A stretch of 64,000 nt of DNA, taken from NCBI GenBank assembly GCA_963422305.1, contig OY729422.1, positions 2,792,436-2,856,435 of the forward strand, in the 5' to 3' direction. This DNA comes from Bryobacterales bacterium. GTDB lineage: Bacteria; Acidobacteriota; Terriglobia; Bryobacterales; UBA6623. Positions 6,902-63,900 of the stretch are shown here, piece by piece (position 1 is the stretch's first letter; each line of letters starts with the position of its first letter). Below the pieces are notes generated by a model. The model did not search any database. It had not been told where the DNA came from and saw only the letters and a program-made list of their open reading frames with translations. The translations under genes were made by a program, and so were the position numbers.

Positions 6902-9900
6902 CTAGAATTCGAACCTCAGGCTGAATTGTGTTTCGCGGCCCGGTCTGGTGGACGTGACGCGCCCGAAGCCTCCGCGGATGGTGTCGGAGCCTCCGCCGCG
7001 CGTATTCGTATCGACGCCGCCAAAATTGGTGTGATTCAGGGCGTTGAACAAATCAACCCTGAGCTGCACTCTCATGCCTTCTTCGTTGAGTTTGAGACTC
7101 TTGGAGAGGGACATGTTGACCGTCCATGCGCCGGGACCGTAAATCGAACGCCGCCCCATCGTACCCGGTCGAATCGTTCGATTGCCGCGCGCATTGCGCG
7201 GGACGTTCTGAAACGCATCCGGGTTCAGGTATTGGTATTGGCCGTTCGTCGATGTGCGGTTATCGCTGCGCACCGCCTCCGCGTGGCTGCCGCCGATGAA
7301 GTCGGGGCGCGCGCCCGGCCCGCTGGCGCCTTGATAAATGCGCAGCGGATTGCCGGTCGCAGCGGTCAACAGGCCGCCGATCTGCCAACCTTCGACGAGC
7401 AGGCGCCGCGCCGCGCCGCCGCGGCCCTTGAATGGCAGCTCATAGATCCAATCAGTCACGAAGCGGTGCCGGATATGGAACGGCGTCGGTGCATGATTGA
7501 GCTTCAGATTGGTCAGATTCTGGGGCTCTTCGCCTCCGCCGCAGCATGTATAGTCGCCTCGGAAATACGAGGTGTTGCTGCCGTAGGTGTAGTTGAAGTT
7601 CGCCTGCAGGTTGGCTGAGAGCCTTTTCTTCAACGACGTTTGCAGGCTGTGATAGTCGCTGTTGTCGGCGCTCTGGTAGTAGCGGAACTGGCGGGCGAAG
7701 TTGGCTACCGGGAGTTGTCCCGTCTGTCGGTCATTGCGGTTGAAGCCGGGGCTGTAGATGAGCTTCACGCCTCGGTTGCCGACATACGCGATGTCGAAAA
7801 CCAGAGTGTCCGTCAACTGCCGTTGAATGCCATAAGACCATTGCAGGCTGTAGGAGTTTTCCCAATTCGGGTCAACAGCCGAACCGGTGACGATATCGCT
7901 GGCGGCGACCAAGGGTAGGACCTGTTCGCGCGTCGCCCCGTAGTTGACCCCGAATTGCTGCAGTTGCGAACGGTCGAGACTCGCCTGCGTCGGGGTTGTC
8001 AGGTCGTTTCGGACCAACTCGACCGGGCCCGAGAACAGATTGAACGGGATGTAGAACACGCCGAAGCCGCCTCGTATCACGGTCTTGTCGTTAAGCGAGT
8101 AGGCGAAACCGAACCTCGGCGAGAACATGTTGAAATGTTCTTTCCAAACGTCATCTGAAGACAGGAAGGGGCCAAACGGGCCGTCGCGGTTGAAGAAGCG
8201 CTCGTCGCGCTCGACCGGAACGGTTCCGTAGTCCCAGCGCAGGCCGAGATTGACCGTCAGCCTCTTGGATATGCGGATGTCGTCTTGCACGAACAGGCCG
8301 AAGAAATTCCGGCGGATTTCAAACTCGCTCAAACCGAAATTGAAGAACGCCGACTCCGGGTTGTTGGCCAGTGCATCTTCCAGAGTGTTGTATGAAAACC
8401 GAGGAGTGTCGTTCAGGACGCGGCGGGCGAAGTGAACGCGGAAAAGACCGCCGAACTTCAGAGAGTGCCTACCGCTGGTCTTGGCGAAGTTTTGCTCGAA
8501 GGTAGTAGTGGAGCCGGTTTTGGAAAACTGCCGGGCCTGTCCGGCGTCGGGCAGGCCCGCGCCCAATACTTTGGCAACGTTTAACGTCAGCAGTTGATCG
8601 ATGCGGTCCATATCCGAGCGGTTATAGCCGAAACGCGACTCAGTCGTCATGGTGGGGCTGAGCACGCGGTTGAAGGTGGCGGCCACGTTCTCGTTCAGGC
8701 CGTCGTGTAAGCGGGGATTCCCCTTGGCCAGCCTGGGCGTGAGCTGCAAGGGGCGGCCTCGCGTGTAGCGAACTGTCAACAGGGAATTGGCGTCCACCTG
8801 GTAGTCGCCGCGGAGAACTAGGTGGTTGTCTTCGTTCTGCTTCGCTCCGGAGCCGCTGAAGAAAGCGCGCGCGTCGTCGGGGTTCACTGGATTTTCGGTC
8901 GGCAGATACCAAGCGTCCCAATAGGTCTTCGATTCCGGAATGGCCCGCGTGATTTCCTCGCGGAACTTCAGCGACGGCACGAATCCGGTCAGAGGTCTTT
9001 GCTCATTGAGACGGTAACCCTCGAATGCTCCGAACAGGAAGACCTTGTTCTTCACGAGCGGGCCGCCGAGCGAGCCTCCGTACTGGTGGTACACCCTGGA
9101 GGTCTTGCGCGCCAGGATATGGTTGTTCGCATTCAGACCGCCGGATTGATACTGCTCGAATAAGCTGCCGTGCAGGTCGTTCGTTCCGCCTTTGGTGATG
9201 ATGTTGAAATTGCCGGCGACGGTCTGTCCGATTTCGGCTGAGAAGATGTTCTTCGATATCTCGACTTCTTGCACGGCTTCCAAGCTGACGCCCTTGATGA
9301 AATTGAAATTCTGATAGAGCGAAATCGACGGGAATTCGGAATCGGGAGCGGCGTCCACGCCGTCCACGGAGAACGAGAAGCCGCGTGGCGGAAGGCCGTT
9401 GATCGATACCGTCGTTCCATTCCCGTCGGACAAGCCTGTGCCGTTCTGCAGGATTCCTGTGATATCACGGCGCAAAAGCGGGAGCTCGTGAACCTGGTCG
9501 CTGTTGAGGTTGATGTCTTGCTCGGCGCTGACCGTGTTGAGCAGCGGCGCTTCTGCGGAAACATTCACCGTCTCGGTCGTCACGCCGAGTTCGAGCGTGA
9601 AGGCGACATTCGCCTTTTGGCCCGAAGACAACTGCAAGCCCGTTTGTTCATAGCTTTTAAAGCCTTCTGAAGAAACCAATGCCGTATAACTGCCGACCGT
9701 AACAAACGGTATGGTCACCTCGCCGCGTTCATTGCTGACGGCCTCTTTTGTAAAGCCGGTATTGTCGTTCACTAGAGTAACCCGGGCGCCCGGGATCACC
9801 GCGCCGGACGGGTCTTCGACACGCCCGTAGAGCGTGGCGGTTGTGACTTGCGCGAAGCTCGGTGCAACCAACGCCGGCGCCGTCAGCGCGATGAACGCGG

Positions 9901-9934
9901 TCCATAAAAAACCGCGCGACATGATGTCTTTCAT
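6902..9934 (-). CDS. TonB-dependent outer-membrane receptor with N-terminal carboxypeptidase-regulatory-like domain
   Basis: The ORF runs 6902-10006. I prefer the internal ATG at 9934 (MKDIMSRGFLWTAFIALTAPALVAPSFAQ signal peptide), which is preceded by AAGGAGAG 6 nt upstream. TATLYGRVEDPSGAVIPGARVTL is CarboxypepD_reg-like. Long beta-rich body ending in ...FSLRFEF (terminal aromatic, as in OM barrels). Confidence 0.85.
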   Translation of the reverse strand: MKDIMSRGFLWTAFIALTAPALVAPSFAQVTTATLYGRVEDPSGAVIPGARVTLVNDNTGFTKEAVSNERGEVTIPFVTVGSYTALVSSEGFKSYEQTGLQLSSGQKANVAFTLELGVTTETVNVSAEAPLLNTVSAEQDINLNSDQVHELPLLRRDITGILQNGTGLSDGNGTTVSINGLPPRGFSFSVDGVDAAPDSEFPSISLYQNFNFIKGVSLEAVQEVEISKNIFSAEIGQTVAGNFNIITKGGTNDLHGSLFEQYQSGGLNANNHILARKTSRVYHQYGGSLGGPLVKNKVFLFGAFEGYRLNEQRPLTGFVPSLKFREEITRAIPESKTYWDAWYLPTENPVNPDDARAFFSGSGAKQNEDNHLVLRGDYQVDANSLLTVRYTRGRPLQLTPRLAKGNPRLHDGLNENVAATFNRVLSPTMTTESRFGYNRSDMDRIDQLLTLNVAKVLGAGLPDAGQARQFSKTGSTTTFEQNFAKTSGRHSLKFGGLFRVHFARRVLNDTPRFSYNTLEDALANNPESAFFNFGLSEFEIRRNFFGLFVQDDIRISKRLTVNLGLRWDYGTVPVERDERFFNRDGPFGPFLSSDDVWKEHFNMFSPRFGFAYSLNDKTVIRGGFGVFYIPFNLFSGPVELVRNDLTTPTQASLDRSQLQQFGVNYGATREQVLPLVAASDIVTGSAVDPNWENSYSLQWSYGIQRQLTDTLVFDIAYVGNRGVKLIYSPGFNRNDRQTGQLPVANFARQFRYYQSADNSDYHSLQTSLKKRLSANLQANFNYTYGSNTSYFRGDYTCCGGGEEPQNLTNLKLNHAPTPFHIRHRFVTDWIYELPFKGRGGAARRLLVEGWQIGGLLTAATGNPLRIYQGASGPGARPDFIGGSHAEAVRSDNRTSTNGQYQYLNPDAFQNVPRNARGNRTIRPGTMGRRSIYGPGAWTVNMSLSKSLKLNEEGMRVQLRVDLFNALNHTNFGGVDTNTRGGGSDTIRGGFGRVTSTRPGRETQFSLRFEF

Positions 9935-10063
9935 TTCGACTTCTCTCCTTATTCGAGTGGGTTCAAGGTTTGCAGATTTGCTCCTCATCAGAGATCTGCG
10001 AGTCAATGTGACCTAAAATAGACTTGTATCGAAAAGATAACCTCTGTATCGAATGGATGTCAA

Positions 10064-10091
10064 GAAAATATGAAACCGGTTTCATATTTTC
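10064..10091. promoter_or_regulatory. Perfect 28-bp palindrome GAAAATATGAAACC/GGTTTCATATTTTC in the divergent TBDR-IclR intergenic region; probable operator
   Basis: Read directly from the sequence. AT-rich in a GC-rich genome. It sits between two divergently transcribed genes, one of which encodes an IclR regulator. Confidence 0.55.
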
Positions 10092-10166
10092 TTAAAACCG
10101 ACCTTGGCGGAGCATGGTGCGCTCTGTGTTCTCATAAAGAAAGGGGATGCGCGGCGAAGCAGTTCG

Positions 10167-10955
10167 ATGAAGAGTTCGACGAAGGAAAAAGCGCCGATCA
10201 AGGAGCCGTATACCTCGCAAACCGTGCTTCGCGCGCTCAAGGCGCTCGATGCTCTTGGTCAAGCGCAGGAAGCCCAATCGTTGCAATCGCTTTGCGAGCA
10301 GCTTGGCGTGGCTAAGGCATCGACGTTTCGTCTGATGCATACCCTGGAGGAAGCCGGATATGTCGGGAAGGATGCCGCCGGCGGGTATTTTGCCATGGGT
10401 CGAGGATCGCTGCAGTCCGCCCGGTACCGTCGCCAACTACCCGAGGCGGCGAGCCCTGAAATGCTTCGTCTGAGACGGCGGTTCCGCGAAACGGTCAGCC
10501 TGGCAGCTCTGTTCGACAATCATGTAGAGGTAGTCGAAGTCTTTGAAAGCCCGGAGTTTATGCGCATGAGCAACACCGTTGGACGCATTCTGCCGCCACA
10601 CGCCAGCTCGCTTGGCAAGGCCATCGTCGCGTTTCAAACCGAGCAGCGGCGCGAAACGCTGGTGCGCAGCTACGGAATCTATCGCTACACTGAGCACACC
10701 GTCATCGATGAAAGCGACTTGCAGCAGGAATTCGAAGAGATTCGGCATCGGGGCCACGCAACCGATGCCGAAGAAAACACCAAGGGCGGCCGTTGCTATG
10801 GCGTGCCCCTGCTCGACAGATCGGGCACGGCCTTTGCGGCATTAAGTGTTTCGATGCCGACAAGCCGCCACAAAACCGAAAGCGTGCAACAACGCATCGT
10901 CGAAGCGCTCAAGGAGAGCGCGGAGAATGTCGTTCGGGAGTTTGACTTGACCTAG
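10167..10955 (+). CDS. IclR family transcriptional regulator
   Basis: The ORF spans 10104-10955 (TTG start); ATG at 10167 (MKSSTKEK) is more plausible. TVLRALKALDALG...SLCEQLGVAKASTFRLMHTLEEAGYV is the IclR wHTH. The C-terminal effector domain ends ...GVPLLDRSGTAFAALSVSMP. Confidence 0.85.
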   Translation: MKSSTKEKAPIKEPYTSQTVLRALKALDALGQAQEAQSLQSLCEQLGVAKASTFRLMHTLEEAGYVGKDAAGGYFAMGRGSLQSARYRRQLPEAASPEMLRLRRRFRETVSLAALFDNHVEVVEVFESPEFMRMSNTVGRILPPHASSLGKAIVAFQTEQRRETLVRSYGIYRYTEHTVIDESDLQQEFEEIRHRGHATDAEENTKGGRCYGVPLLDRSGTAFAALSVSMPTSRHKTESVQQRIVEALKESAENVVREFDLT

Positions 10956-10995
10956 GCAAGCGGACGGATGAAGAGGCAAACGCCGGAAATCCTAA

Positions 10996-11024
10996 AAAAT
11001 GAAACTTTTATGCTAAAATGAAAC
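10996..11024. promoter_or_regulatory. Two direct AAAATGAAAC repeats upstream of the DapA-like gene, sharing the ATGAAAC half-site with the 10064-10091 palindrome
   Basis: AAAATGAAAC occurs at 10996-11005 and 11015-11024 in an AT-rich stretch about 70 nt upstream of the 11092 start. The second copy lies inside an imperfect inverted repeat, TGCTAAAATG-AAA-CATTTTGAGCA. Confidence 0.35.
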
Positions 11025-11091
11025 ATTTTGAGCATTTATGTGTGCTTTCGCTGGCTTTACGGACCGGAGCGCCCTGCGTTGAACACTGTGG

Positions 11092-11994
11092 TTGCAAGTG
11101 AATAACGGCCAAATAACATTCCATGCGGCGCTCTTGACCCCGACTACTGCTGGAGGGGCGCTTGATCTGAATGCCTTGAGCCGAAATATCGAGTTTGTGA
11201 TTGGCGCCGGCATTGACGGCGTTTGCGTAAACGGCGTCACCGGCGAGTATCCTCGCTTTACATCCTTAGAAAGGCAGGCGGTCACTGAGAACGCGAGCGC
11301 GCTTTTGAAGGGCCGCGGTCGATTGATCGTCGGTATCGGTGCATCGACGCTCGACGAGTCGGTCGCCCTCGGCCGGCACGCTCTCGACCATGGGGCGGAT
11401 GCTCTGCTGTTGCCCCCGCCGCATTTTTTCCTGTACGAGCCGCAGGATGTCGCCTCTTTCTACTACGAAGCGGCGTCGCGCCTGGACGGCTCGATTCTGA
11501 TCTACAATATCCCGGCGTTTACGAATCCCGTGGCTCCGGAGTGGATTGCGCGGCTGGTCGCGGCGGCGCCCAACATCGTCGGCGCAAAGGACAGCAGCGG
11601 AAGCCTCGAATCTCTGGCCGCGCTCAGAAAACAGCGGGCGGAAGTTCGCTGGATGGGCAACGACTCGAAAATCTCGGCGGCTTTGTCGTCAGGCGCCGCG
11701 AACGGCTTGATTTCCGGCATTGCCGGCGTGTTCCCGGAAGTCGTAGGCGCACTGGTGAGCGCCCATCGAGACGGCAAGGAACATGCGGCCGCAGGCGCGG
11801 TTCTGCTTGAGATCATCGTGCGCATCGAGACTCTCCCGGTTCCCTGGGGACTGAAGCTGCTGGCGCAGTGCCGCGGCCTCGGGGAGGCGCGTTTTGCCTT
11901 GCCGGTCTCGAACGGCCGGCGACAAGAGTTGGCCGCATTGGAAGAATGGTTCGAGCGTTGGTCCGCCGACCGTTGCTTATTGTCGGTCGCATGA
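11092..11994 (+). CDS. Dihydrodipicolinate synthase / N-acetylneuraminate lyase family aldolase
   Basis: 300-aa ORF. GVCVNGVTGEYPRFTSLER, GASTLDESVALGRHA...GADALLLPPP, YNIPAFT, and GAKDSSG (Schiff-base Lys context) are typical of the DHDPS/NAL family. The start codon (TTG 11092 or GTG 11098) is uncertain. Confidence 0.85.
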   Translation: MQVNNGQITFHAALLTPTTAGGALDLNALSRNIEFVIGAGIDGVCVNGVTGEYPRFTSLERQAVTENASALLKGRGRLIVGIGASTLDESVALGRHALDHGADALLLPPPHFFLYEPQDVASFYYEAASRLDGSILIYNIPAFTNPVAPEWIARLVAAAPNIVGAKDSSGSLESLAALRKQRAEVRWMGNDSKISAALSSGAANGLISGIAGVFPEVVGALVSAHRDGKEHAAAGAVLLEIIVRIETLPVPWGLKLLAQCRGLGEARFALPVSNGRRQELAALEEWFERWSADRCLLSVA

Positions 11995-53489: not shown

Positions 53490-53566
53490 TCGATTCGACC
53501 TCCCGTGCGGAGTCATTCTAGCGCTTCGGAGCGTGCCGTGCAGTCAATGCCTTAGATGTGGAAGAT

Positions 53567-53643
53567 TGGTACGCCCGGCAGGATTCGAACCTGCGGCCTC
53601 TTGCTCCGGAGGCAAGCGCTCTATCCAGCTGAGCTACGGGCGC
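53567..53643 (-). tRNA. tRNA-Arg (anticodon CCG), CCA encoded
   Basis: The reverse complement GCGCCCGTAGCTCAGCTGGATAGAGCGCTTGCCTCCGGAGCAAGAGGCCGCAGGTTCGAATCCTGCCGGGCGTACCA folds as a cloverleaf. It has a 7-bp acceptor stem, GCTC/GAGC D stem, CTTGC/GCAAG anticodon stem with loop CTCCGGA, and GCAGG/CCTGC T stem with TTCGAAT loop. Confidence 0.93.
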
Positions 53644-53758
53644 GAACGAGAGAACGGCGCGACGCCGGCGGCGGGCCCGGCGGCGCTGCCTTCAGCATAG
53701 CGCGGCGCCGGCGGGACGGCGAAAGAGATTACAATCGGCGGACAATAAGGGACGGGCA

Positions 53759-56700
53759 ATGAATGACGAGAACATGCGCAACAGCATACGCGACGCAATC
53801 AGGGCTGCGCCGGCGGCGGGCTCCGGCGGCGGCTTCGCGCAGTGGGCAAGCAATCTATTGGCAGTCCTGGGCTACCGCAGCGAGCGCGCGCCGGACGGGC
53901 AGACGGGCGATGTTAACGAATTCATCGCAGATTTCCCGGCACTGAAGCCGAGCGCTCAATCGGAGCGCAATTTGCGCAGCAGCGCCGCATCCATACGCAT
54001 CCTCTTTCAGTTCACCAATACCGAGATCGCCGAGACGGCTCCAAGCGCATTGCTCGATGCCGCCGCTTTCGACTCGGGCAACGCCGAGAGCTTCATCTTT
54101 GCCGCCGTCGAACTGAACGGTGAAACCTATTCGCGGAGCAAGTACGCCGAATTCACCCGCGAGGTCAACAAACGGCTGCCGATGCCCATCGTGATTCTGT
54201 TCCGCGCCGCCGCCGGCCGTCTCACCCTGGCTTTCGTGCATCGCCGGGTCAACAAACGCAACATCGAGCGGGATGTGTTGGGCAGCGTCTCGCTGATCCG
54301 TGAGATCGACCCTGTCGATCCGCACCGCGCCCATATCGACGCGCTGGCCGAGTTGACGCCGGCCAAGCGGCTGCAATGGATGGGCAGCCGCGGCAAGCCG
54401 CGCAACTTCGACGGCCTGCTCGACGCTTGGTTGGACGCGCTCGACGCTAGGGAACTGAACCGCAAGTTTTACCGGGAGTTGTTCGCTTGGTTCGAGCGCG
54501 CCGTCGCCAAGACGAAATTTCCTGCCGGCGTTCCTCCTGAAGAGCACGTTATCCGTCTCATAACCCGCTTGTTGTTCGTATGGTTCATCAAGCAAAAGCG
54601 GCTGATTGCCGAGGAACTGTTCGTCGAAAACGAGATTCGCCGGCTGCTCAAAGACTATGACCGCGACGCCGGCGATTCCTACTACCGCGCCGTGCTGCAG
54701 AACCTGTTTTTCGCCACGCTGAACACCGAAATCGATCAGCGGCGCTTCAGCAAAGAGAGCAACGCCGATCACCGCGACTTTTCCCGCTACCGCTATCGAG
54801 ACGAAATCAGCGGTCCCGACCGCCTGATTGCGCTGTTCGCCCGAACGCCCTTCATTAACGGCGGCCTGTTCGATTGTCTGGATAGCTATGAAGCAGGCGG
54901 CAAGGGTGGGCGGCGCATCGACTGTTTTACCGACAACCGGAATCATCGCAAGCTGCTGTCCATCCCCAACCGCCTGTTTTTTGACCCCGAAGCTGGCCTG
55001 TTCCCTTTGTTCAACCGCTATAAGTTCACGGTGGAGGAGAACACGCCGGTTGAACGGGAGGCAGCCCTCGACCCCGAGTTGCTCGGCCGGGTCTTCGAAA
55101 ACCTGCTGGCCGCATACAATCCGGAGACGCGCCGGACGGCGCGCAAGGCCACCGGCTCCTACTACACGCCGCGTCCGGTAGTGGATTACATGGTTGACGA
55201 GGCGCTGACGGCAGCGCTGACGCAACGATGCAAGCCGACGGACGGCGACGATGAATTCTGGCGCGAGCGCCTGCGCTATCTGCTGGATTACAACGACGCC
55301 GGGGAACTGTTCGACTCGGACGAAACGGAAGCCGTGGTCCGAGCGGTCGCCGGACTGCGGGTGCTGGATCCGGCCGTCGGCTCCGGCGCATTTCCAATGA
55401 GCGTGCTGCACAAGCTCACTCTGGCGCTGCGCCGTCTCGACCCTGATAACGAACTCTGGAAGGAATTGCAGAAAGATCAAGCTCGTCGCCGAGCGGGCGC
55501 GGCCTTCGACGCCGATGACCGGGCAGAGCGTGAAAGACAGCTGGCCGCAATCAGCGATAACTTCGAGCGCTATCGGCGCTCCGACTTCGGGCGCAAGCTG
55601 TACTTGATCCAGAACGGCATCTACGGCGTGGACATCCAGCCCATCGCCTGCCGGATTGCCCAACTGCGCTTCTTCATCTCCCTGACCATCGAGCAGGAAC
55701 CCGACCCCGCCGCCCCCAATTACGGCATCAAGCCGCTGCCCAACCTCGAAACCCGCTTCGTCGCGGCGAATGCGCTGCTCGGTCTGGACAAGCCCGCCCA
55801 ATCGACACTGGGGCAAACCGACGCCGTCAAGCAACTGGAGCGGCGGCTGAAAGAAAACCGTGAGCGGCATTTTCACGTCAACAACCGTCAGAAAAAACTG
55901 GAATGCCGCAATAAAGACAGAGAACTGCGGGATGAGTTGGCTGCGGAGTTGAGAGCGGGCGGCATGCCCGCCGGCGCCGCCGAAAAAGTCGCCCGCTGGA
56001 ACCCCTACGACCAGAACGCCGTTGCCGACTGGTTCGACGCCGAATACATGTTCGGCCTAGCCGACGGCTTCGATATCGTCATCGGCAACCCGCCCTACGT
56101 GCGCGGCGAGAAGATAGCGGGCAAGGCGAGATTGCGCGCCGCTTTCGGGGACTTCTATAAGGGGACGGCCGATCTCTACGCCTATTTCTTCAAGAAGGGC
56201 GTGGAGTTCCTGGCAGCCAATGGGCTGCTCTGCTTCATCACCTCGAACAAGTTCATGCGGGCGGCTTACGGGCAGCCGCTGCGGGCTTTTTTGAAACGGG
56301 AAGCGCCGCCGGTTTTTCTTCTCGACATGGGGCGAACGGGAGCTTTCGATGCGACAGTGCGCCCCGCGATCATGCTGGCGGGGAAGGGCGGCAGCCGTAA
56401 AGCACTGCGCGCCGCCACCGTGCGGGAAAAAGACGGCGTGACGGACGACTTGCGCGCCTTCATGGAAGAGAGCGGATTCCTCATGTCCTTCGCCGCGTTG
56501 TCGGATAAGGGTTGGTCTCTCGCGGAACCGGCGCTGCTGCGACTGCGCGGCAAGATCGAGAAGGCGGGGGCGCCGCTGCGGGAATATCTGAAAGAAGGAC
56601 TCTACCGCGGCATTATTACGGGATTGAACGAAGCGTTTGTGATTGACGCGCAGACGCGCAAACGGCTGATCGCTGAAGACCCGAACAGCGCGGAACTGAT

Positions 56701-57388
56701 CCGGCCGTGGCTGCGCGGCCGGGACGTTCGGCGCCGGCGCGCGGATTGGGCCGGCCTGTATGTGATCGCCATTGCCTCAAGCGCCAACAAATCGTGGCCG
56801 TGGTCGTCCGCGAGCCCGGCAGTCGATGCCGTTGCTATTTTCAAGAAGACTTATCCGGCCGTTCACGGTCATCTGTCCCGATTCGAAGACAAGCTCTGCG
56901 AGAGACAGGACAAAGGGAGATTCTTCTGGGAACTGCGCGCCTGCGCCTACTACGAGGCGTTCGATCAACCGAAGATCATCTATGCCGACATTGGAACGGA
57001 AATGCGGGCGCTGCTCGACCGCGACGGCCGGCTGACGGGCAATACATGCTATATCATCCCCGGCGATGACGGCTACCTTCTCGCTCTACTGAACGCGAAG
57101 CTGCTGGACTTCTACTTCCGCTTGGCCATGCCCTGCCTGGATGACCCGTTCAGCGGCGGGGACATGAGATTCTTTCGCGTGGACATGGAGCGCACGCCCA
57201 TCGCAGCGGCCGGCCCGGCAAAGAAAGATCGCTTAGCCGCCCTGTCAAACGCAATCCAGACGGCCAAGCAAGCGGACCCCGCCGCCGATACATCCGCCCC
57301 CGAACGCGAAATCGACCGCATCGTCTATGACCTCTACGGCCTCGATGCAAGCGAAACCGCGCTGATTGAAAAGACCGCCGAGCGTTGA
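53759..57388 (+). CDS. Eco57I-family N6-adenine DNA methyltransferase with type IIG / BREX PglX-like architecture (1209 aa)
   Basis: Motif I VLDPAVGSGAFP, motif IV IVIGNPPYV, helical region with LLFVWFIKQK, LQNLFFATLN and PFINGGLF. TaqI_C-like specificity region (YRGIITGLNEAFVID...CYIIPGDDGYLLALLNAKLLDFY) and the typical C-terminal tail IVYDLYGLDASETALIE. Confidence 0.85.
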   Translation: MNDENMRNSIRDAIRAAPAAGSGGGFAQWASNLLAVLGYRSERAPDGQTGDVNEFIADFPALKPSAQSERNLRSSAASIRILFQFTNTEIAETAPSALLDAAAFDSGNAESFIFAAVELNGETYSRSKYAEFTREVNKRLPMPIVILFRAAAGRLTLAFVHRRVNKRNIERDVLGSVSLIREIDPVDPHRAHIDALAELTPAKRLQWMGSRGKPRNFDGLLDAWLDALDARELNRKFYRELFAWFERAVAKTKFPAGVPPEEHVIRLITRLLFVWFIKQKRLIAEELFVENEIRRLLKDYDRDAGDSYYRAVLQNLFFATLNTEIDQRRFSKESNADHRDFSRYRYRDEISGPDRLIALFARTPFINGGLFDCLDSYEAGGKGGRRIDCFTDNRNHRKLLSIPNRLFFDPEAGLFPLFNRYKFTVEENTPVEREAALDPELLGRVFENLLAAYNPETRRTARKATGSYYTPRPVVDYMVDEALTAALTQRCKPTDGDDEFWRERLRYLLDYNDAGELFDSDETEAVVRAVAGLRVLDPAVGSGAFPMSVLHKLTLALRRLDPDNELWKELQKDQARRRAGAAFDADDRAERERQLAAISDNFERYRRSDFGRKLYLIQNGIYGVDIQPIACRIAQLRFFISLTIEQEPDPAAPNYGIKPLPNLETRFVAANALLGLDKPAQSTLGQTDAVKQLERRLKENRERHFHVNNRQKKLECRNKDRELRDELAAELRAGGMPAGAAEKVARWNPYDQNAVADWFDAEYMFGLADGFDIVIGNPPYVRGEKIAGKARLRAAFGDFYKGTADLYAYFFKKGVEFLAANGLLCFITSNKFMRAAYGQPLRAFLKREAPPVFLLDMGRTGAFDATVRPAIMLAGKGGSRKALRAATVREKDGVTDDLRAFMEESGFLMSFAALSDKGWSLAEPALLRLRGKIEKAGAPLREYLKEGLYRGIITGLNEAFVIDAQTRKRLIAEDPNSAELIRPWLRGRDVRRRRADWAGLYVIAIASSANKSWPWSSASPAVDAVAIFKKTYPAVHGHLSRFEDKLCERQDKGRFFWELRACAYYEAFDQPKIIYADIGTEMRALLDRDGRLTGNTCYIIPGDDGYLLALLNAKLLDFYFRLAMPCLDDPFSGGDMRFFRVDMERTPIAAAGPAKKDRLAALSNAIQTAKQADPAADTSAPEREIDRIVYDLYGLDASETALIEKTAER

Positions 57389-57497
57389 CCGGCGTGATGC
57401 GCGCCGGCGTCTGGCCGCTCTCTATATAGCGGTGGGGAGTGCAGGCGGAACTCCGAAGACGGAGCAGTCTGCGGTAACGTACAAGGGTGAATTCGGT

Positions 57498-57677
57498 ATG
57501 AGTAAAAAGAAAAACCCTCCGCCGCCAGAACCGCCGGTAAGTCCTCTGCCGGAGCCGTTGGAAAAGAGCATTGAGGCTGTCAGGTCCACTGTGCGCCCCC
57601 CGCGGACGAAGCCGCCGCCGCGGCCGAAGCCTCCGGCAGACCCGGCCAACGACGGCGCCGAAGAAGGCGGTTCTTGA
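57498..57677 (+). CDS. Hypothetical 59-aa proline/lysine-rich, probably disordered protein
   Basis: ATG preceded by AAGGGTGA. MSKKKNPPPPEPPVSPLPEPLEKSIEAVRSTVRPPRTKPPPRPKPPADPANDGAEEGGS. It ends 26 nt before the next gene. Coding status is uncertain. Confidence 0.35.
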   Translation: MSKKKNPPPPEPPVSPLPEPLEKSIEAVRSTVRPPRTKPPPRPKPPADPANDGAEEGGS

Positions 57678-57703
57678 TTGCGTTGCTATGATAAGCATCG
57701 TTC

Positions 57704-58243
57704 ATGACGAATGAGGGTTTTGATGATTTGCTGTTTGGCGTGCGCCGTTCGATACGCTACCATTCGAGGCGGCAAGCGTTTTTCGAAAGGCTTGATCGCT
57801 GGTCCGCGTTTGTGTTGCTGCTGTTGGGTTCTGGAGCGGTCGCGTCGGTCCTGCAAGACAATAAAACCTGGGCTCTCATCGCGGGGCTTGGCGTGACGTG
57901 CGTCTCCGGTCTGAACCTTGTCTTTGGGTTTGGAGTCAGGGCAAGCCGGCATGCCCAATTCGTCAAGGACTTCACGCGGTTTGAAACGCGGCTTCAGGAC
58001 GACGACTCCGACGAGACCGTAGCAGCCGTCGCCAAAGAACGTCTTGGCGTCGAGGCGGCGGAACCTCCGGTTATGCGGGTGCTTGACGTTATTTGCCACA
58101 ACGAGTTGCTCACGGCCATGGGTTACGAAGGCAATATTCTGCAACAGGAGCGAGTTCGGCTAACACGTCTCCAGCGCTTGACCGCCAATCTTTTCAATTG
58201 GGGCGAGCATCGATTGATAAAGGGCGGTCAAGAGTTGAGTTGA
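57704..58243 (+). CDS. Two-transmembrane-helix protein, SLATT/DUF4231-like topology (putative membrane effector)
   Basis: 179 aa. N-terminal amphipathic RRSIRYHSRRQAFFERLDRW, TM1 SAFVLLLLGSGAVASVL, TM2 WALIAGLGVTCVSGLNLVFGF, then ASRHAQFVKDFTRFETRL and a soluble C-terminal tail. The SLATT assignment is by pattern only. Confidence 0.5.
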   Translation: MTNEGFDDLLFGVRRSIRYHSRRQAFFERLDRWSAFVLLLLGSGAVASVLQDNKTWALIAGLGVTCVSGLNLVFGFGVRASRHAQFVKDFTRFETRLQDDDSDETVAAVAKERLGVEAAEPPVMRVLDVICHNELLTAMGYEGNILQQERVRLTRLQRLTANLFNWGEHRLIKGGQELS

Positions 58244-58281
58244 GCGTTTTTCGGCGTGCGCGGCGTCGTGGACCGATCGGC

Positions 58282-58437
58282 CGTCGTTCCAAAACCGTTC
58301 CAAGGCGGCGTAAAGCTCTTGTAAATGGTTTATGCGCTCTACGGCTCGATCGAGAAAGAAATTGCGCCGGCGGAAGAACGGACAAGGCGTCGCCGCCGCT
58401 TCAAGACCATTCCAAGGTGACGTAAAGCGCTTGTAAA
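58282..58437. repeat. Two 44-nt imperfect direct repeats (58282-58325 and 58394-58437, 36 of 44 identical) upstream of the ECF sigma gene
   Basis: CGTCGTTCCAAAACCGTTCCAAGGCGGCGTAAAGCTCTTGTAAA versus CGCCGCTTCAAGACCATTCCAAGGTGACGTAAAGCGCTTGTAAA, aligned by eye. Period 112 nt. Confidence 0.7.
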
Positions 58438-58503
58438 GAGAGTTTAACCTGGGTTTTACCGTTGTGGAATAACCGCTCCGGGAGGCCGCTGCGTCTTATC
58501 GGC

Positions 58504-59073
58504 ATGACTGTCGATCCTGAAATCATCCGCCAAGCTCAAAATGGGGACGAGGCTGCCTTCAGCGCCGTTTTCCGCGCCTACAAACAGCGTGTGTTCGGCA
58601 CGGTCTATCGCCTGCTCGGACGCCGTGACGCCGTCGAAGACGTGGGTCAGGATGTCTTTATTCGTCTGTACCGGTCGCTCGGACAACTGCGCGCGGTCGA
58701 GGTGTTCGAGACATGGCTGTACCGCCTGACGGTCAATACCGTTTATGATTATCTGCGCAAGGAGCGGCGGCGCTGCGACGTGCGGTTGGCCGACCTGAGC
58801 GAAGAGCAGATTCGCCTAGCCGATAGCGCCGCCTCCGGCAGGGACATGGCGGTTACGCGGCGCCGGACGGAAGCGCGCTGTCTGCTGCAGGCTCTGTTGG
58901 CCAACGTCTCGGAAGCGGACAAGCGGCTGTTGACGCTGAAGGAAGTCGAGGGTCTGACGCTGAAAGAGATGGAAGGCATTTACTGCTCGAACGAAAACGC
59001 CTTGAAAGTGAGGCTGTTTCGGGCGCGCAAGCGAGCGCGCCGGGCATACCAACAGATGCCGGCCGCGTATTAG
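58504..59073 (+). CDS. ECF-type RNA polymerase sigma-70 family factor
   Basis: Start at ATG 58504 (MTVDPEIIRQAQNGDEAAF). Region 2 is VEDVGQDVFIRLYRSL...FETWLYRLTVNTVYDYLRK. Region 4 is LTLKEVEGLTLKEMEGIYCSNENALKVRLFRARKRAR. Confidence 0.88.
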   Translation: MTVDPEIIRQAQNGDEAAFSAVFRAYKQRVFGTVYRLLGRRDAVEDVGQDVFIRLYRSLGQLRAVEVFETWLYRLTVNTVYDYLRKERRRCDVRLADLSEEQIRLADSAASGRDMAVTRRRTEARCLLQALLANVSEADKRLLTLKEVEGLTLKEMEGIYCSNENALKVRLFRARKRARRAYQQMPAAY

Positions 59074-59557
59074 CCGCCACTACAACGCTTGCTCGACCAG
59101 CGCCGCGAGATCGTCCGATTCGTCGCTTTGAAACTCGATTTCGAGCGCATGGGGCGGTTGCGCAAGATCGCTGCCGGTCGTTGATACGGATACTGCGCCG
59201 GCCGTTGCGGCCGCCCGTGAGCGTTTTGAAACGATTGCCGGGCGAATGCCGAGCCGAGCGCTGCTGTTGTTGTCGACGTCCGCAGCGAAGAAGGATGCGG
59301 TATAATAGCAGCAGTCTCAAGGGAACAAGCCGTGTATTCGCTCGACACGCATCGTCGATGCTGGCCTATCGGCCCGGTAGCCATTCGAGGATGGATTGAA
59401 AACAGCCTTCTTTTCAACGGCTTACCAGTCTTTCTGTTCTTCGACCTCCGCTATCTGAACCGAGACCGCGTTGCAGGTTCAGGACACGACCTTACCGGGA
59501 TTTGGTCTCCATCCGCAAGCAGAAGCAGCCTCTTTCCATTAGCAACGTCGCGCTTCC

Positions 59558-59604
59558 CCCTGTCCGACGAATTGGTGTAAAATACACCAATTCGTCGGAC
59601 AGGG
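59558..59604. promoter_or_regulatory. Perfect 47-bp palindrome (22-bp arms, AAA centre) 11 nt upstream of the RHH gene; operator and/or SD-sequestering hairpin
   Basis: CCCTGTCCGACGAATTGGTGTA-AAA-TACACCAATTCGTCGGACAGGG read directly. The 3' end of the right arm (CAGGGA) is the only SD-like element before ATG 59616. Confidence 0.7.
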
Positions 59605-59615
59605 ATTCGATACCC

Positions 59616-59852
59616 ATGGGTCGTCCAAGGCAACACAAGCAGACCGCTCGGCTGAGCGTCAGCTTCGAAAAGGTCGATTATGACCGCGTGACCGCGATTG
59701 CCGAAGCCAACGATGTCTCTACAGCGTGGATCATCCGAAAGGCCGTAACCGCCTATTTGGATACTTTTGGACATTCCGCCCTTCCCATTGGTGCGCAGCG
59801 CGAGCAGCAGCAAGTAGGCGCACTGGCGACTGATGAAAGGCAGATCCGGTGA
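59616..59852 (+). CDS. Ribbon-helix-helix (CopG/Arc-like) DNA-binding protein, putative controller of the R-M operon
   Basis: 78 aa. MGRPRQHKQTARLSVSFEKVDYDRVTAIAEANDVSTAWIIRKAVTAYL has the beta-strand/helix/helix RHH pattern. The stop overlaps the nuclease GTG start (GTGA). Confidence 0.7.
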   Translation: MGRPRQHKQTARLSVSFEKVDYDRVTAIAEANDVSTAWIIRKAVTAYLDTFGHSALPIGAQREQQQVGALATDERQIR

Positions 59853-61216
59853 GCAAAAAAAGTGATCTTCCCTTCGGCAGCGAGTTCTCACCCTCGCAGA
59901 TCGCACTTCCAAAGGTATTGGAGTTTGCGGCTCTTCATGGCGGCAACTGGCGCGCCTTTGAGGAAACCGTACGAGAAGCCTATTTCGAGGGACACAAGAC
60001 CAGCGCCTACAACCGCGCAAAACTCGCCAACAATACTAAACTGGGAATGATCGCCTACGGGATCATTGACCGGGATGCGACGCTGACCCCGTTGGGCCAA
60101 GATCTCTACGATCTACGCAATGACGAAAATGTGTTGCATGACCGATTGGCCCGGCACATTCTTCTAAACCTTCGTGGAATGACCCTCGTCCAGTGTATTC
60201 GCGATATGGTGGCGGCTGGCGAACAAGTAAATCTCACCACCCTTCGAGAGGGCCTCGCAGCACGGGGCATTCACTACCCATCCGGAGGCAAACACCCCAG
60301 CATGATGCGCCTATGGCTCGCCAAAGCCGAAGTCTTTATCGGCAGCCGGTGGCAAGTCAATGAACGCAGAATTGAAGAAATCCTCGGCATTGACCCGGAC
60401 GAATTCGCGGTCCTGGGCGACTTTACCGTCGAGCAAAGAGCCTTCCTGAAAGCTCTAGCGAACATGGGGACCGACGAACCCCAACTCGCCAATGCGGTGG
60501 CCAAGCTCGCTACAGCGACCTATGGCGTGAAGTTTCCAGAAAAGAGCCTGCCGAAGCTGGTCCTCAACGATTTGGAGAGGGCAGGATACATCACAACAGA
60601 GAAGACCACGACTGGACGAGGGGCTAAGCCCTTTCAAGTGTTTCCCACCAACAAGCTGATCGCCGATGTAGTTGAACCACTCCTTGAGCAGCTTCGAGGG
60701 CAGACCGATCCAAAGCTGTTGGCGTTATTGCGAACGCCGCTCTCCGCGATCTTGAGGGAGATGAAAGGCAAGGATCGCTATAGGGCAGGGCTTGCCCTTG
60801 AAGCGTTGGCCTTCAAGATCATGCGCCTCCTTGACATGACCTACGTTGCGACTCGATTGCGCGCGAACCAGACAGGCGGCGCAGAAGTCGATCTGATCTT
60901 TGAGAGCGCCCGCCTAGTGTTCTTCCGTTGGCAGATTCAGTGCAAGAACACAGCTCGTGTTTCTCTAGACGATGTTGCAAAGGAAGTGGGCCTTACCCAT
61001 TTCCTGAAGAGTAACGTGATTGTCATAGTGACAACAGGAGAAATCAGCAGCCAGGCCCGACGATACGCTAACAAGATTATGGCTGATTCAAACCTTGCAA
61101 TCGTCATTCTGGACGGTGGAGACCTGATCGCAATAAGTGAACAACCAGCGGAAATATTGCGGGCATTCGAACGTGAAGCACGCCACGCGATGAACCTAAA
61201 GAAGCTTGATCTCTAA
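59849..61216 (+). CDS. Restriction endonuclease with C-terminal Mrr-like PD-(D/E)xK catalytic domain
   Basis: 455 aa. C-terminus GLALEALAFKIMRLLDM...GGAEVDLIFE...RWQIQCKNT...VIVIVTTGEISSQARRYA...IVILDGGDL matches the Mrr_cat pattern (D...QxK). The N-terminal roughly 330 aa are helical/wHTH-like and likely bind DNA. Confidence 0.75.
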   Translation: MSKKSDLPFGSEFSPSQIALPKVLEFAALHGGNWRAFEETVREAYFEGHKTSAYNRAKLANNTKLGMIAYGIIDRDATLTPLGQDLYDLRNDENVLHDRLARHILLNLRGMTLVQCIRDMVAAGEQVNLTTLREGLAARGIHYPSGGKHPSMMRLWLAKAEVFIGSRWQVNERRIEEILGIDPDEFAVLGDFTVEQRAFLKALANMGTDEPQLANAVAKLATATYGVKFPEKSLPKLVLNDLERAGYITTEKTTTGRGAKPFQVFPTNKLIADVVEPLLEQLRGQTDPKLLALLRTPLSAILREMKGKDRYRAGLALEALAFKIMRLLDMTYVATRLRANQTGGAEVDLIFESARLVFFRWQIQCKNTARVSLDDVAKEVGLTHFLKSNVIVIVTTGEISSQARRYANKIMADSNLAIVILDGGDLIAISEQPAEILRAFEREARHAMNLKKLDL

Positions 61217-61232
61217 TGGGGGAGGCTAGACG

Positions 61233-62285
61233 ATGACAACCAGCAAGCCTCCGAGTGTAGTCCACAGAACGTCTCTCGGTCGCATCTACCACGGCGATAG
61301 TTTAGAGGTAATGAAGGCTACAAAGCCAGCATCAATCGCTCTAGTTATGACGAGCCCACCGTTCGCATTAACTCGCAAGAAGGACTACGGAAACGAGCAA
61401 GAAGATGATTATCTCGAATGGTTTCGCCGCTTCGCGGAGCAGTTTCGTCGCATCTTGAAGGATGACGGAAGCGTTGTGATCGATCTAGGCGGCGCATGGA
61501 AACCCGGAATACCGGTGCGTAGCCTTTATCACTTCAAGCTACTAATCATGCTTTGCGAAGAATACGATTTTCATCTGGCACAGGAATTCTATTGGTGGAA
61601 TCCCTCTAAGCTCCCCACGCCTGCTGAGTGGGTCAATGTACGGAGAATTCGGGTAAAGGATGGTGTCAACACCGTTTGGTGGTTGTCCAAGACACCATGG
61701 CCGCGCGCCAGTAATCGACGAGTCTTGCAGCCATACAGTGACAGCATGAAGACCTTGTTGAGCAACGGCTATAAGCCAATGCTACGCCCATCGGGGCACG
61801 ACATCAGCGATAAGTTCTCCATCAACAATGGTGCCGCGATCCCACCGAACCTTATCGCGATTCCAAACACAGAGAGCAACAGCAGTTATTTGCGTTACTG
61901 CAAGGAGATTGGGATCAAGGCTCATCCTGCACGTTTCCCAGCCGCATTGCCGGAGTATTTTGTCAGGATGGTGACGGATCCGGGAGATTTGGTTCTGGAT
62001 CCCTTTGCTGGAAGCTGCGTCACGGGCGAAGTCGCCGAACGACTTGGGCGGAAGTGGGTATGTGTAGAAATTGTCGAGTCATATCTGCGCGGTGCTAAGG
62101 GAAGGTTTGGACAGATAGTGGACGCACCGAAACCGAAGAATCCGAAGAATCCGAAGAAGGATGCTGACGGTTACTATCGCATTCCCCATCCCGGGTTGCT
62201 TTGGAATGGACGTGCGGAAGATGACGAAGAACCGCTTCCCAAGGATGGCGGTAGACGGCGCACCACGGCGGCGAATCTGCCGTAG
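61233..62285 (+). CDS. Beta-class amino DNA methyltransferase (N4-cytosine/N6-adenine family; SPPF motif suggests N4-cytosine)
   Basis: 350 aa. Motif IV LVMTSPPFAL. HPARFPAALPEYFV. Motif I VLDPFAGSCVTGEVAERLGRKWVCVEI. Basic repetitive tail KPKNPKNPKK. Confidence 0.9.
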   Translation: MTTSKPPSVVHRTSLGRIYHGDSLEVMKATKPASIALVMTSPPFALTRKKDYGNEQEDDYLEWFRRFAEQFRRILKDDGSVVIDLGGAWKPGIPVRSLYHFKLLIMLCEEYDFHLAQEFYWWNPSKLPTPAEWVNVRRIRVKDGVNTVWWLSKTPWPRASNRRVLQPYSDSMKTLLSNGYKPMLRPSGHDISDKFSINNGAAIPPNLIAIPNTESNSSYLRYCKEIGIKAHPARFPAALPEYFVRMVTDPGDLVLDPFAGSCVTGEVAERLGRKWVCVEIVESYLRGAKGRFGQIVDAPKPKNPKNPKKDADGYYRIPHPGLLWNGRAEDDEEPLPKDGGRRRTTAANLP

Positions 62286-62327
62286 CACCGTCGCCATCGG
62301 TGCAGACTTTCGAGTGAGGGAAGCGGT

Positions 62328-63221
62328 TTAGCGGCAAAGCTTGCGCTGAATTGCCGCCGCCACCCGCTCGGCGGCTTGGCTCAGCGTCGCATCGTCAAGA
62401 TGGACGTAGCGGTTTGTCGTGGTAGCCCGGCGATGCCCGAGCAGGCGTCCGGCGACATGCAGGCTCTCGCCGTTCATGACCGCGTGCGAGGCGTGCGCAT
62501 GGCGCAGGTCATGCAGTCGCGTATCCGCCACAATTCCGGCCGCGTCGCGCGCCTTGATCCAGAACCTCCGCAGGTCATCTGTACTCAAAGGCCCGTTTCC
62601 CTTGTCGCACGGAAACACCCACTCGCCGGATGCTGTATTGGCCAGCCTGTCCAGCAGATCCCGCGCCGCCTCTCCGAGCAGAACGTGCCTCGGGCCGGTC
62701 TTCGCGTCAATCAGCGCGAGCCGGTCGGGCTTGACCTCGCACCGGCGCAGGCAGCGAATCTCGCCCGGCCTGCATCCGGTCAGCAGGAGCAGCCGCACCG
62801 CCGCGACGCAAACCGGGTTCTCGTCTTCGCTCTGGCGCAGGACCGCGCCGAGCCTCGCAAGGTCGTCCGCCCCGAGCAGCCGCCCGCGCGGCGGTCGCCG
62901 GTAGCGGACAATGCCGATGCACGGGTTCCCCGCAGCTTCGGGCCGATGGCCCCACGCGATGGCGCAGTCGAACATGTTGCGCAGTATGTCATGACTTCGA
63001 TTCGCGCCGCCCGGCTTTCTGCGTCCGTATTCGTGGAAGAAGCGGGCAATATTGGCGCGCACGACCGAGCCGACGCGGAGATGGCCGAGAGCGGGCAGGA
63101 TGGCGCTGTTGAGATAGCTCATGGTGGCCTTCACCGTGGACGGCTTCCACGAAGGCGAGCGCCGCTCGACGTATTCGGCGGCGAACTTCGTCAGCGTCGG
63201 GCCGGAAGCGGGAAGCGGCAC
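62328..63221 (-). CDS. Tyrosine recombinase / phage-type integrase (core-binding and catalytic domains)
   Basis: 297-aa ORF (GTG start). LLLLTGCRPGEI (Arg), HDLRHAHASH (HxxR) and LGHRRATTTNRYVH (His...Tyr). Confidence 0.85.
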   Translation of the reverse strand: MPLPASGPTLTKFAAEYVERRSPSWKPSTVKATMSYLNSAILPALGHLRVGSVVRANIARFFHEYGRRKPGGANRSHDILRNMFDCAIAWGHRPEAAGNPCIGIVRYRRPPRGRLLGADDLARLGAVLRQSEDENPVCVAAVRLLLLTGCRPGEIRCLRRCEVKPDRLALIDAKTGPRHVLLGEAARDLLDRLANTASGEWVFPCDKGNGPLSTDDLRRFWIKARDAAGIVADTRLHDLRHAHASHAVMNGESLHVAGRLLGHRRATTTNRYVHLDDATLSQAAERVAAAIQRKLCR

Positions 63222-63372
63222 CGGACTCCCGCCGCCTCCATGTCCTGCGCCCGTTCGGTCGCGCCCGCAGTCCGAGCCCCGGCACCGCGCTGTCCCACAG
63301 CACGGCCTCGCGACCGTCCTCAGCGGTGAGGGCGCGAGCGCCCACCATGGTGATCTTCGTTCTGTTCGTCAT
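63222..63372 (-). pseudogene. Out-of-frame N-terminal (DUF4102/arm-binding-like) fragment of the same integrase
   Basis: ORF 62989-63372 begins MTNRTKITMVGARALTAEDGREAVLWDSAVPGLGLRARPNGRRTW, the usual N-terminus of P4-type integrases. It then leaves the integrase frame. Only about 12 codons separate it from the PTLTKFAAEYVERR block, where roughly 40-50 are expected. Confidence 0.5.
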
Positions 63373-63531
63373 CTTCCGATCCCTCCCGTTCGTTTACGTC
63401 GCGACCGGCGCGGCGCAGGTGCCCATAGTTGGGGAACACCCAGGACACGCCGGGTAACGAAGCCGGGTTCGAAGATCGGAAGGGTCGGAAGTGCCGCGCT
63501 CAAACGCCGCGCGGGCTGCAAGCCGTTGTCA

Positions 63532-63900
63532 ATGAAGGGCTTTCGGCGCTTCGCGGATGCGCGGAGGAAGTGCGATTCTCTACGCCATGCGGCGGTTTGG
63601 TTCTCACACCACACTCATGCCGCCGTTCGCGACCTGGAGGCGGCCGGCCTCGAGCTGCAGCACGCCGAGGCCATTGTTGCGGCCGTCAGCCGCGCTGACG
63701 AGCAACTTGCTACGAAGGTTGATGTCGCGGCGGTTGAAACCGGCGTGGCGGCGCTCCGGAGCGATATGGTAATGGTCAAGGCCGATATTGCGTGGCTTAA
63801 AGCCGATGCCGCGGCGCGGCGTTCCGAGGTCCGCTGGATGTTCGGTTTCCAGTCGGCGATCATTCTGGCCATAGCCGCACGGCTGTTCGTTCTCGTGTGA
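63532..63900 (+). CDS. DUF1640-like coiled-coil protein with C-terminal membrane anchor
   Basis: Last 122 codons of ORF 63121-63900. AVRDLEAAGLELQHAEAIVAAV...LATKVDVAAVETGVAALRSDM...MFGFQSAIILAIAARLFVLV resembles DUF1640 family proteins. The start codon is uncertain. Confidence 0.5.
   Translation: MKGFRRFADARRKCDSLRHAAVWFSHHTHAAVRDLEAAGLELQHAEAIVAAVSRADEQLATKVDVAAVETGVAALRSDMVMVKADIAWLKADAAARRSEVRWMFGFQSAIILAIAARLFVLV

Follow-up and report, generated by a model that had tools for sequence, protein, structure and literature searches.

The analysed window is a 64,000-nt stretch from the genome of a Bryobacterales bacterium (GenBank assembly GCA_963422305.1, contig OY729422.1), and the subject of this work is a row of four genes that stand in it next to a tRNA-Arg gene (Table 1). 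These genes encode a large DNA methyltransferase (MTase), a proline-rich micro-protein whose open reading frame (ORF) we call the micro-ORF, a protein with two transmembrane (TM) segments that resembles SLATT membrane effectors, and an extracytoplasmic function (ECF) sigma factor, and they are separated by gaps of 109, 26 and 260 nt. A first-pass annotation had read them as one undescribed defence module of modification-linked abortive infection with a dedicated sigma factor. Its description of the layout holds well: the four co-directional ORFs were all found at their coordinates and spacings beside tRNA-Arg, the gene identifications are right, and the partners known from bacteriophage exclusion (BREX) systems are missing, with no helicase, PglZ or BrxC encoded within 10 kb of the four genes. 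Furthermore, the gene arrangement is not an assembly artefact, because an independent 5-kb short-read contig (Logan ERR11641160, L001) repeats the order SLATT-sigma-RHH-Mrr-MTase, the last three belonging to the genes downstream. Loci used for comparison are given below by such L numbers.

We collected 79 genomic loci and 75 viral contigs (IMG/VR) that encode a relative of the 179-aa TM protein, a family for which 357 homologues were detected. A micro-ORF was counted when a same-strand ORF that contained the motif [DNS]T-x(1-3)-PP had its end within -160 to +70 nt of the SLATT start, and random positions in the same loci served as the control. By this definition, the motif stands upstream of the SLATT-like gene in 56 of the 79 genomic loci (control 2.2%), and a looser pattern finds it in 65 of them (control 7.4%). 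The independent viral set gave 63/72 (control 1.7%) and, with the looser pattern, 68/72 (control 6.1%). The micro-ORF is thus a real gene and a conserved partner of the SLATT-like gene, one that is routinely left unannotated and yet accompanies it in at least 119 independent loci, including the well-known phage BcepMu.

The micro-ORF product is hydrophilic and carries the family motif ...VRSTVRPPRTKPPPRPKPP... in the window. Aligned on the motif, the sequences read V-[RT]-[DN]-T-[VLH]-x-P-P-P-x-P and continue with a charged tail of 8-30 aa, while the N-terminal part varies freely and the total length lies between 45 and 65 aa. The motif prolines are written with all four codons (CCA 101, CCG 95, CCC 59, CCT 53), which argues for selection at the peptide level. 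A median of 23 nt separates the micro-ORF from the SLATT ATG, with an overlap in several pairs. In L008 the orthologous micro-ORF starts at the identical ATG position and differs by in-frame indels of 33 and 9 nt. In phage BcepMu (L089, record positions 10494-10682) the unannotated micro-ORF overlaps gp19 at its annotated start, and the same holds for the annotated start of the SLATT-like coding sequence in the Klebsiella plasmid-prophage OW969859 (L090, 5778-5978). PADLOC 2.0 has no model for the micro-ORF or the SLATT-like protein, and we found no description of a SLATT and small-ORF pair, or of BcepMu gp19, in the literature searched. Therefore, the claim of an undescribed system survives for the conserved pair, whereas the four-gene unit is unsupported. 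As a separate observation, ARAGORN places an 89-nt tRNA-Ile(TAT) gene at L008 9151-9239, between a DUF5343 gene and the micro-ORF, which may be another integration landmark.

In the second member of the pair, the N-terminal helix is basic (RRSIRYH), a TM hairpin spans roughly residues 34-78, and the cytoplasmic C-terminal domain (EPP...CHNE) is conserved; its invariant positions include R15, S16, R18, Y19, R23, H83, E94, E120, P121, P122, C131, H132 and N133. No Pfam family covers the full protein, and its match to PHROG 11791 (phrog_11791, 1.3e-46) leads to a group of unannotated function. The NCBIfam SLATT_1 profile scores the window protein at 20.9 bits, below its cut-off of 41, and it matches 23 of 26 family members at E < 0.1 (best E 3.8e-6, again sub-threshold); the Pfam SLATT_1 profile matches 5 of the 26. 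An AlphaFold2 (AF2) model of the protein has a predicted local distance difference test (pLDDT) score of 94.6. Its best structural matches in BFVD are annotated SLATT proteins (probability 1.0, TM-score 0.5-0.68, best E 4.5e-3), and a Foldseek search against the PDB returned just non-significant helical-hairpin matches. A SLATT-like assignment is therefore supported by the modelled fold but not by the curated thresholds, and of the pore-effector topology proposed at first pass, the long N-terminal helix and the two-TM hairpin stand. In common with SLATT effectors (those associated with SMODS or SLOG, and also those of the cyclic-oligonucleotide-based antiphage signalling system (CBASS), retrons and DRT10), the family has a basic N-terminal helix followed by a TM hairpin, is carried on mobile elements, gives sub-threshold SLATT_1 or SLATT_4 profile matches in most members, and has SLATT proteins as its top structural matches. 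It differs from them in its own conserved C-terminal domain and upstream micro-ORF, and no nucleotide synthase, SMODS, SLOG, SAVED or reverse transcriptase was seen in the window or the annotated neighbourhoods.

Several Acidobacteriota loci (L013, L014, L015, L018, L021, L081, L010) carry two tandem SLATT-like paralogues, whose identity to the query is 36-42% and about 61%. In addition, a GCTAYAAT-like element is conserved 8-12 nt 5' of the SLATT-like ATG in Acidobacteriota loci, without a Shine-Dalgarno sequence (window 57681-57703; L008, L009, L011, L017, L019, L020 and L086), and it may be a -10 box that yields a leaderless mRNA. Proteobacterial loci have a Shine-Dalgarno-like GGAG or GAGG instead.

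The pair is a conserved two-gene cassette of Mu-like phages, other prophages and defence islands. Most of the viral contigs that carry it belong to Mu-like phages (34 contigs have MuA-like genes and 38 have TerL), and lysis genes follow the pair at median distances of +268 nt (holin), +723 nt (endolysin) and +1332 nt (Rz); in BcepMu and the Klebsiella plasmid-prophage it likewise stands directly before lysis genes. Other copies lie away from lysis genes, in the early or immunity region of an Acidobacteriota prophage, after a restriction-modification (R-M) system, and in Bryobacterales islands with KAP and STAND NTPases.

From this distribution across several bacterial phyla and Mu-like phages including BcepMu, we tentatively propose that the pair is an undescribed, widespread two-component membrane switch, in which the DT-x-x-PPP micro-protein gates a SLATT pore as an antitoxin, an antiholin or a ribosome-pausing sensor, with lysis-adjacent use in phages and abortive infection in defence islands; this is a possible reading, held with low confidence. 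In the version of such a switch that we prefer, the SLATT-like protein would insert its TM hairpin into the inner membrane, oligomerise, and permeabilise or depolarise the membrane. The disordered micro-protein would be made just upstream, often by translational coupling, and we infer that it binds the cytoplasmic domain of the SLATT-like protein through V-x-[DN]-T-x-x-PPP and restrains it like a labile antitoxin or antiholin. A drop in micro-protein supply, or its removal by a trigger, would then breach the membrane, and the role of the switch would be lysis timing or exclusion in Mu-like phages and abortive infection in islands. What the analysis shows is the linkage of the genes, the motif, the fold and the genomic contexts, together with the boundaries of the insertion and the orphan state of the MTase described below, whereas pore activity, binding of the two proteins to each other, trigger and phenotype are inferred. 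The arrangement resembles type II toxin-antitoxin and holin-antiholin pairs, since a small upstream gene lies close to, or overlaps, a larger gene for a potentially lethal membrane protein, prophages and islands carry it, and in phages it stands beside the lysis cassette. It differs from them in that the micro-protein has no DNA-binding or folded domain, just a short proline-rich motif. The pair offers a tractable two-gene system for studying how stand-alone SLATT effectors are controlled.

The phage contexts also admit a different explanation, namely that the pair is a phage lysis device of holin/antiholin-like or lysis-timing type rather than a defence element, and that the window copy was left behind by a phage and now serves no role. 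The direct position upstream of holin, endolysin and Rz in Mu-like IMG/VR contigs, BcepMu and the Klebsiella plasmid-prophage speaks for such a device, which we regard as possible though doubtful. It does not account for the copies in a prophage early or immunity region, after an R-M system and beside KAP and STAND NTPases; moreover, BcepMu already has an annotated holin, gp21, and both ORFs are intact in the window. These contexts raise the question of a role for the SLATT protein of Mu-like phages in lysis or exclusion.

A second alternative places the action on the ribosome: the micro-ORF would be a cis-acting leader or arrest peptide, in which a pause on DT-x-x-PPP that depends on elongation factor P (EF-P) sets the SLATT-like output, so that the cassette senses translation stress. 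It draws on the invariant polyproline run near the C-terminal end of a short ORF that lies 0-75 nt from the SLATT start, on the variable N-terminal part, and on a reported precedent in which a toxin is controlled by a stalling upstream ORF (toiL upstream of topAI-yjhQ; PMC12121999). Against it, the RNA around the junction of the two genes shows no excess of structure (mean z 0.07 over 124 distinct loci, 2.4% of them below -2), so that there is no conserved stable structure for a stalled ribosome to melt, and the attenuator-type version of the model is weakened accordingly. In addition, the spacing between the PPP run and the SLATT ATG is not constant (about 35 to 135 nt or more), and ORFs of 45-65 aa exceed what arrest alone needs. 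We rate a leader peptide as a live though unlikely alternative.

The MTase contains Pfam Eco57I (1.6e-32) and TaqI_C (1.3e-10) domains, and with the SAM motif DPAVGSG at residue 537 and the catalytic NPPY at 777 both intact, it is predicted to be a DNA methyltransferase of the gamma class that acts on N6-adenine and carries a target-recognition domain of TaqI_C type; it is full-length and probably active. Of the BREX-PglX / type IIG architecture assigned to it at first pass, the PglX part does not fit: all NCBIfam BREX PglX models fall below their cut-offs (BREX_2 50.1 bits against 400, BREX_1 46.9 against 500, BREX_6 40.1 against 900), and PADLOC scores it at 5e-114 with REase_MTase_IIG versus 2e-14 with PglX. 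It shares the MTase superfamily and a similar size with PglX, but neither the window nor the loci of its relatives hold PglZ, BrxC or BrxL. The likeness to type IIG enzymes (Eco57I or MmeI-like) is closer, with a gamma-class N6-adenine MTase and a TaqI_C-type recognition domain in a single chain and IIG models as the best PADLOC matches. However, those matches span only residues ~600-1205, the relatives have a separate nuclease gene, and Pfam, PDB sequence and Foldseek searches of the N-terminal 440 aa detect no nuclease domain. This N-terminal region, which has no recognisable fold and may yet hold a fused nuclease, is conserved in more than 1200 proteins; residues 1-440 matched nothing in Pfam, in a PDB sequence search or, below E = 0.1, in a Foldseek search of the PDB, and the AF2 model of the region has a pLDDT of 71.

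The conserved partner of the MTase is a helicase-nuclease. Specifically, a gene for an HKD(PLD)-Snf2 protein of about 1100 aa lies upstream of the MTase homologue in all six homologous loci (L008, L009, L010, L086, L087, L088), directly adjacent to it in the last three, and these proteins match the PADLOC model 'C3a139 HKD+Snf2' at E 1e-105 to 1e-120. A tblastn search found no such gene anywhere in the 64 kb. Because the partner is conserved in 6/6 loci and absent from the window, the window MTase is an orphan modification and specificity subunit of a two-gene R-M-like system that has lost its restriction partner, and this copy would be able only to methylate. An HKD nuclease fused to a Swi2/Snf2 helicase, together with an N6-MTase, is the effector architecture of type-2 BREX-related (Hma-like) systems (PMC12839542). 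The MTase orthologues resemble these in pairing with an N-terminal HKD nuclease-Swi2/Snf2 helicase fusion, and the HKD-Snf2 protein and the MTase give secondary PADLOC matches to DrmD/HmaA and DrmMI, as in Hma and class 1 of the defence island system associated with restriction-modification (DISARM). They differ in that the best model of the HKD-Snf2 protein is C3a139 and not HmaA or DrmD, that no DUF499 (HmaC) ATPase or DUF3780 was seen in the six loci, in a search that was not exhaustive, both being absent also from the Pfam lists of L002, L087 and L088, and that the helicase-nuclease is wholly missing from the window.

MTase homologues are very often truncated or split in the homologue list, at 400-770 aa; the one in L087 is interrupted by a DDE transposase (8001-10692), and the one in L088 is in two pieces of 689 and 500 aa (8001-11553). 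The named homologues come from sponge-associated metagenome-assembled genomes of several phyla at about 60% identity. This record suggests horizontal spread with frequent decay of the family. The MTase 3' end is a further point of interest. In L086, the final ~90 nt of the gene recur as three nearly identical direct copies (4530-4643, 7586-7693, 10304-10451) that flank successive cassettes, one with TPR genes and one with a KAP NTPase and SLATT/DUF1640 fragments, and in the window the 3' end at 57280-57393 has a degenerate copy at 58325-58425, right after the SLATT-like gene. Such repeats suggest that the MTase 3' end may be a landing site for serial insertion of defence cassettes.

The first-pass annotation had proposed to ask whether the MTase and the TM protein co-occur across genomes. 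They do so in 4 of the 79 genomic loci and none of the 75 viral contigs, only in the closest Bryobacterales loci L008, L009, L010 and L086. A narrower link could be imagined in this order, in which the HKD-Snf2/MTase system cooperates with the SLATT-like protein (and a coiled-coil DUF1640-like protein), the SLATT protein being a backup suicide effector. The MTase and the SLATT-like gene are ordered and oriented alike in the window and those four loci, and auxiliary 'backup' effectors embedded in BREX-related loci have been reported (PMC12839542). Nevertheless, such cooperation is quite improbable: the genes that separate the two differ in all four loci (DUF5343, a 352-aa unknown, a KAP NTPase, TPR proteins), the repeated MTase 3' ends of L086 indicate serial cassette insertion, the MTase homologues of L087 and L088 have no SLATT gene, and 75/79 genomic and 75/75 viral SLATT loci have no MTase.

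The sigma factor (Pfam Sigma70_r2 2.5e-16, also Sigma70_r4_2) proved to be an ordinary core chromosomal gene that merely flanks an insertion. By blastn, the window is collinear with L091, a related Bryobacterales genome, at about 86% nucleotide identity. The window segment 47884-53526 aligns to L091, as do 53557-53704, with the tRNA and its flanking sequence (L091 6726-6857, 82%), and 58422-59170, the sigma block (L091 6919-7691, 80%), after which synteny stops at 59170. L091 carries the same tRNA, only about 60 nt from its sigma gene. Homology ends at 53704 and resumes at 58422, and in L091 only ~60 nt separate these sites; the 4.7 kb of window 53705-58421 are therefore inserted DNA that parts tRNA-Arg from the sigma gene, and a junction alignment agrees with these boundaries. 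The L091 sigma protein (P0242) is 85% identical to that of the window and has the same neighbours (sulfatase, SCFA_trans, sulfatase, MR_MLE, tRNA-Arg); there are 7763 sigma homologues, more than 7000 of them at 60-85% identity in Acidobacteria. L091 has no adjacent anti-sigma gene either, so its absence is native to the lineage. At the right junction, a degenerate MTase 3'-end-like fragment (MVYALYGSIEKEI...) lies between two copies of a short repeat. No integrase lies inside the 53705-58421 block, and no convincing att-like direct repeats were found around either foreign block. We also considered 58249-63595 (sigma, R-M and integrase) as one insertion that splits the SLATT/DUF1640-like pair, and rejected it because L091 synteny makes the sigma gene native and the MTase-SLATT block the inserted part.

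A sigma gene lies near none of the 79 genomic or 75 viral SLATT-like genes, and Mrr nuclease, RHH and integrase genes are likewise in none of them. An all-against-all clustering of ORFs around the 79 loci gave no neighbour common to more than about 10, its result being swamped by spurious high-GC ORFs. The module of MTase, micro-ORF, SLATT-like protein and dedicated sigma regulator therefore has no conserved neighbourhood (sigma 0/154, MTase 4/154 SLATT-like loci) and, by the neighbourhood test that the first-pass annotation had set for itself, is refuted, since the sigma gene is syntenic core DNA and co-occurrence is absent; despite the close co-directional spacing and the lack of a PADLOC model for three of its four genes, a sigma gene that adjoins tRNA-Arg in L091 and an MTase whose conserved partner is HKD-Snf2 leave it hardly credible. 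The four-gene architecture should thus not be counted as a candidate system, and it is a cautionary case of how a core sigma gene between two insertions, together with a nuclease-stripped R-M-like MTase, can mimic a novel operon. Instead, the region is probably a mosaic of four independent things, namely an orphan MTase, the micro-ORF and SLATT-like cassette, a core sigma gene and an R-M/integrase element. The single island described at first pass holds for the presence of foreign DNA, an R-M operon and an integrase, but a core gene separates two foreign blocks.

Several points weigh against this picture of a mosaic with a gated membrane switch. Fourteen of the 79 genomic loci have no recognisable micro-ORF, and in L010 a DUF1640-like gene takes its position. 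No family member passes a curated SLATT profile cut-off. Direct binding by a micro-protein that has no folded domain is conjecture, and an effect in cis on the ribosome is equally conceivable for the polyproline run. Five Bryobacterales genomes do carry the MTase together with the SLATT-like gene, and the two may be loosely linked in function there; likewise, the HKD-Snf2 partner could be encoded in a part of the 4.3-Mb genome that the window does not cover. Finally, the core sigma gene stands between the SLATT-like gene and the DUF1640-like gene that is its usual neighbour.

Table 1 Features around the tRNA-Arg gene, in window coordinates.
Feature	Position	Strand	Details
tRNA-Arg(CCG)	53567-53643	-	ARAGORN; Rfam tRNA 70.8 bits; core gene, left synteny anchor with L091
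Foreign block	53705-58421		4.7 kb; holds MTase, micro-ORF and SLATT-like gene; blastn against L091
MTase gene	53759-57388	+	1209 aa
Micro-ORF	57498-57677	+	59 aa
SLATT-like 2-TM gene	57704-58243	+	179 aa
Junction scar	58298-58438		A ~30-nt sequence, CCRTTCCAAGGYGRCGTAAAGCKCTTGTAAA, in two copies, of which the second is the native region upstream of sigma; sequence reading, repeat D3, alignments, translation
ECF sigma gene	58504-59073	+	189 aa counted from ATG; alternative TTG at 58462 gives 203 aa
Second foreign block	starts 59171		Low-GC R-M operon and integrase
Inverted repeat	59558-59604		Perfect, 22 nt, 3-nt spacer, 100% complementary; 12 nt 5' of the RHH gene
Type II R-M operon (predicted)	59616-62285	+	RHH 59616-59852; Mrr_cat nuclease 59849-61216; N4/N6 MTase 61233-62285
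Tyrosine integrase	62328-63372	-	ORF 62328-63221 lacks ~65 N-terminal residues; Pfam Phage_integrase 1.7e-19
CCDC90/DUF1640-like gene	63532-63900	+	Coiled coil, C-terminal TM; Pfam CCDC90-like 1.5e-4, sub-threshold

Pfam searches identify the genes in the 10 kb upstream as sulfatases, a short-chain fatty acid (SCFA) transporter, an MR_MLE enzyme and a PSD1/PSCyt protein, and the downstream series as RHH, Mrr_cat nuclease, N6_N4 MTase and integrase. A scan for promoters and terminators was uninformative, and the tRNA was the sole match of the Rfam search.

The complete R-M operon reported at first pass is present, with controller, nuclease and MTase in one operon. It is predicted to be of type II from its matches to RHH_1, Mrr_cat (5.9e-10), N6_N4_Mtase (1.4e-40) and the PADLOC model MTase_II (4.8e-123), and its GC content of 0.53-0.57 lies below the ~0.61 found elsewhere. 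The inverted repeat in front of the RHH gene is probably the operator of the R-M controller.

Beyond the integrase, homology of the DUF1640-like gene to its relatives begins at about 63601, and its N-terminus is replaced in the window (tblastx against L008, L009, L010 and L086; junction alignment). In Bryobacterales relatives this gene stands directly 3' of the SLATT-like gene (L008 10578-11027, L009 10578-10877), and in L010 (9653-9937, 10583-10822, 11363-11698) it precedes as well as follows it. The window copy is 5.3 kb from the SLATT-like gene, with the core sigma gene and the R-M/integrase block in between. We rejected the gene as a general SLATT-like partner, since it is present only in the same four relatives.

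By tblastn, the tyrosine integrase matches a 393-aa relative over residues 65-356 alone, and its gene is probably frameshifted. An out-of-frame ORF at 62989-63372 overlaps the integrase ORF and may hold the missing N-terminal residues; it contains the stretch 'LWDSAVPGLGLRARPNGRRTW', which we take to resemble the arm-binding domain of P4-type integrases.

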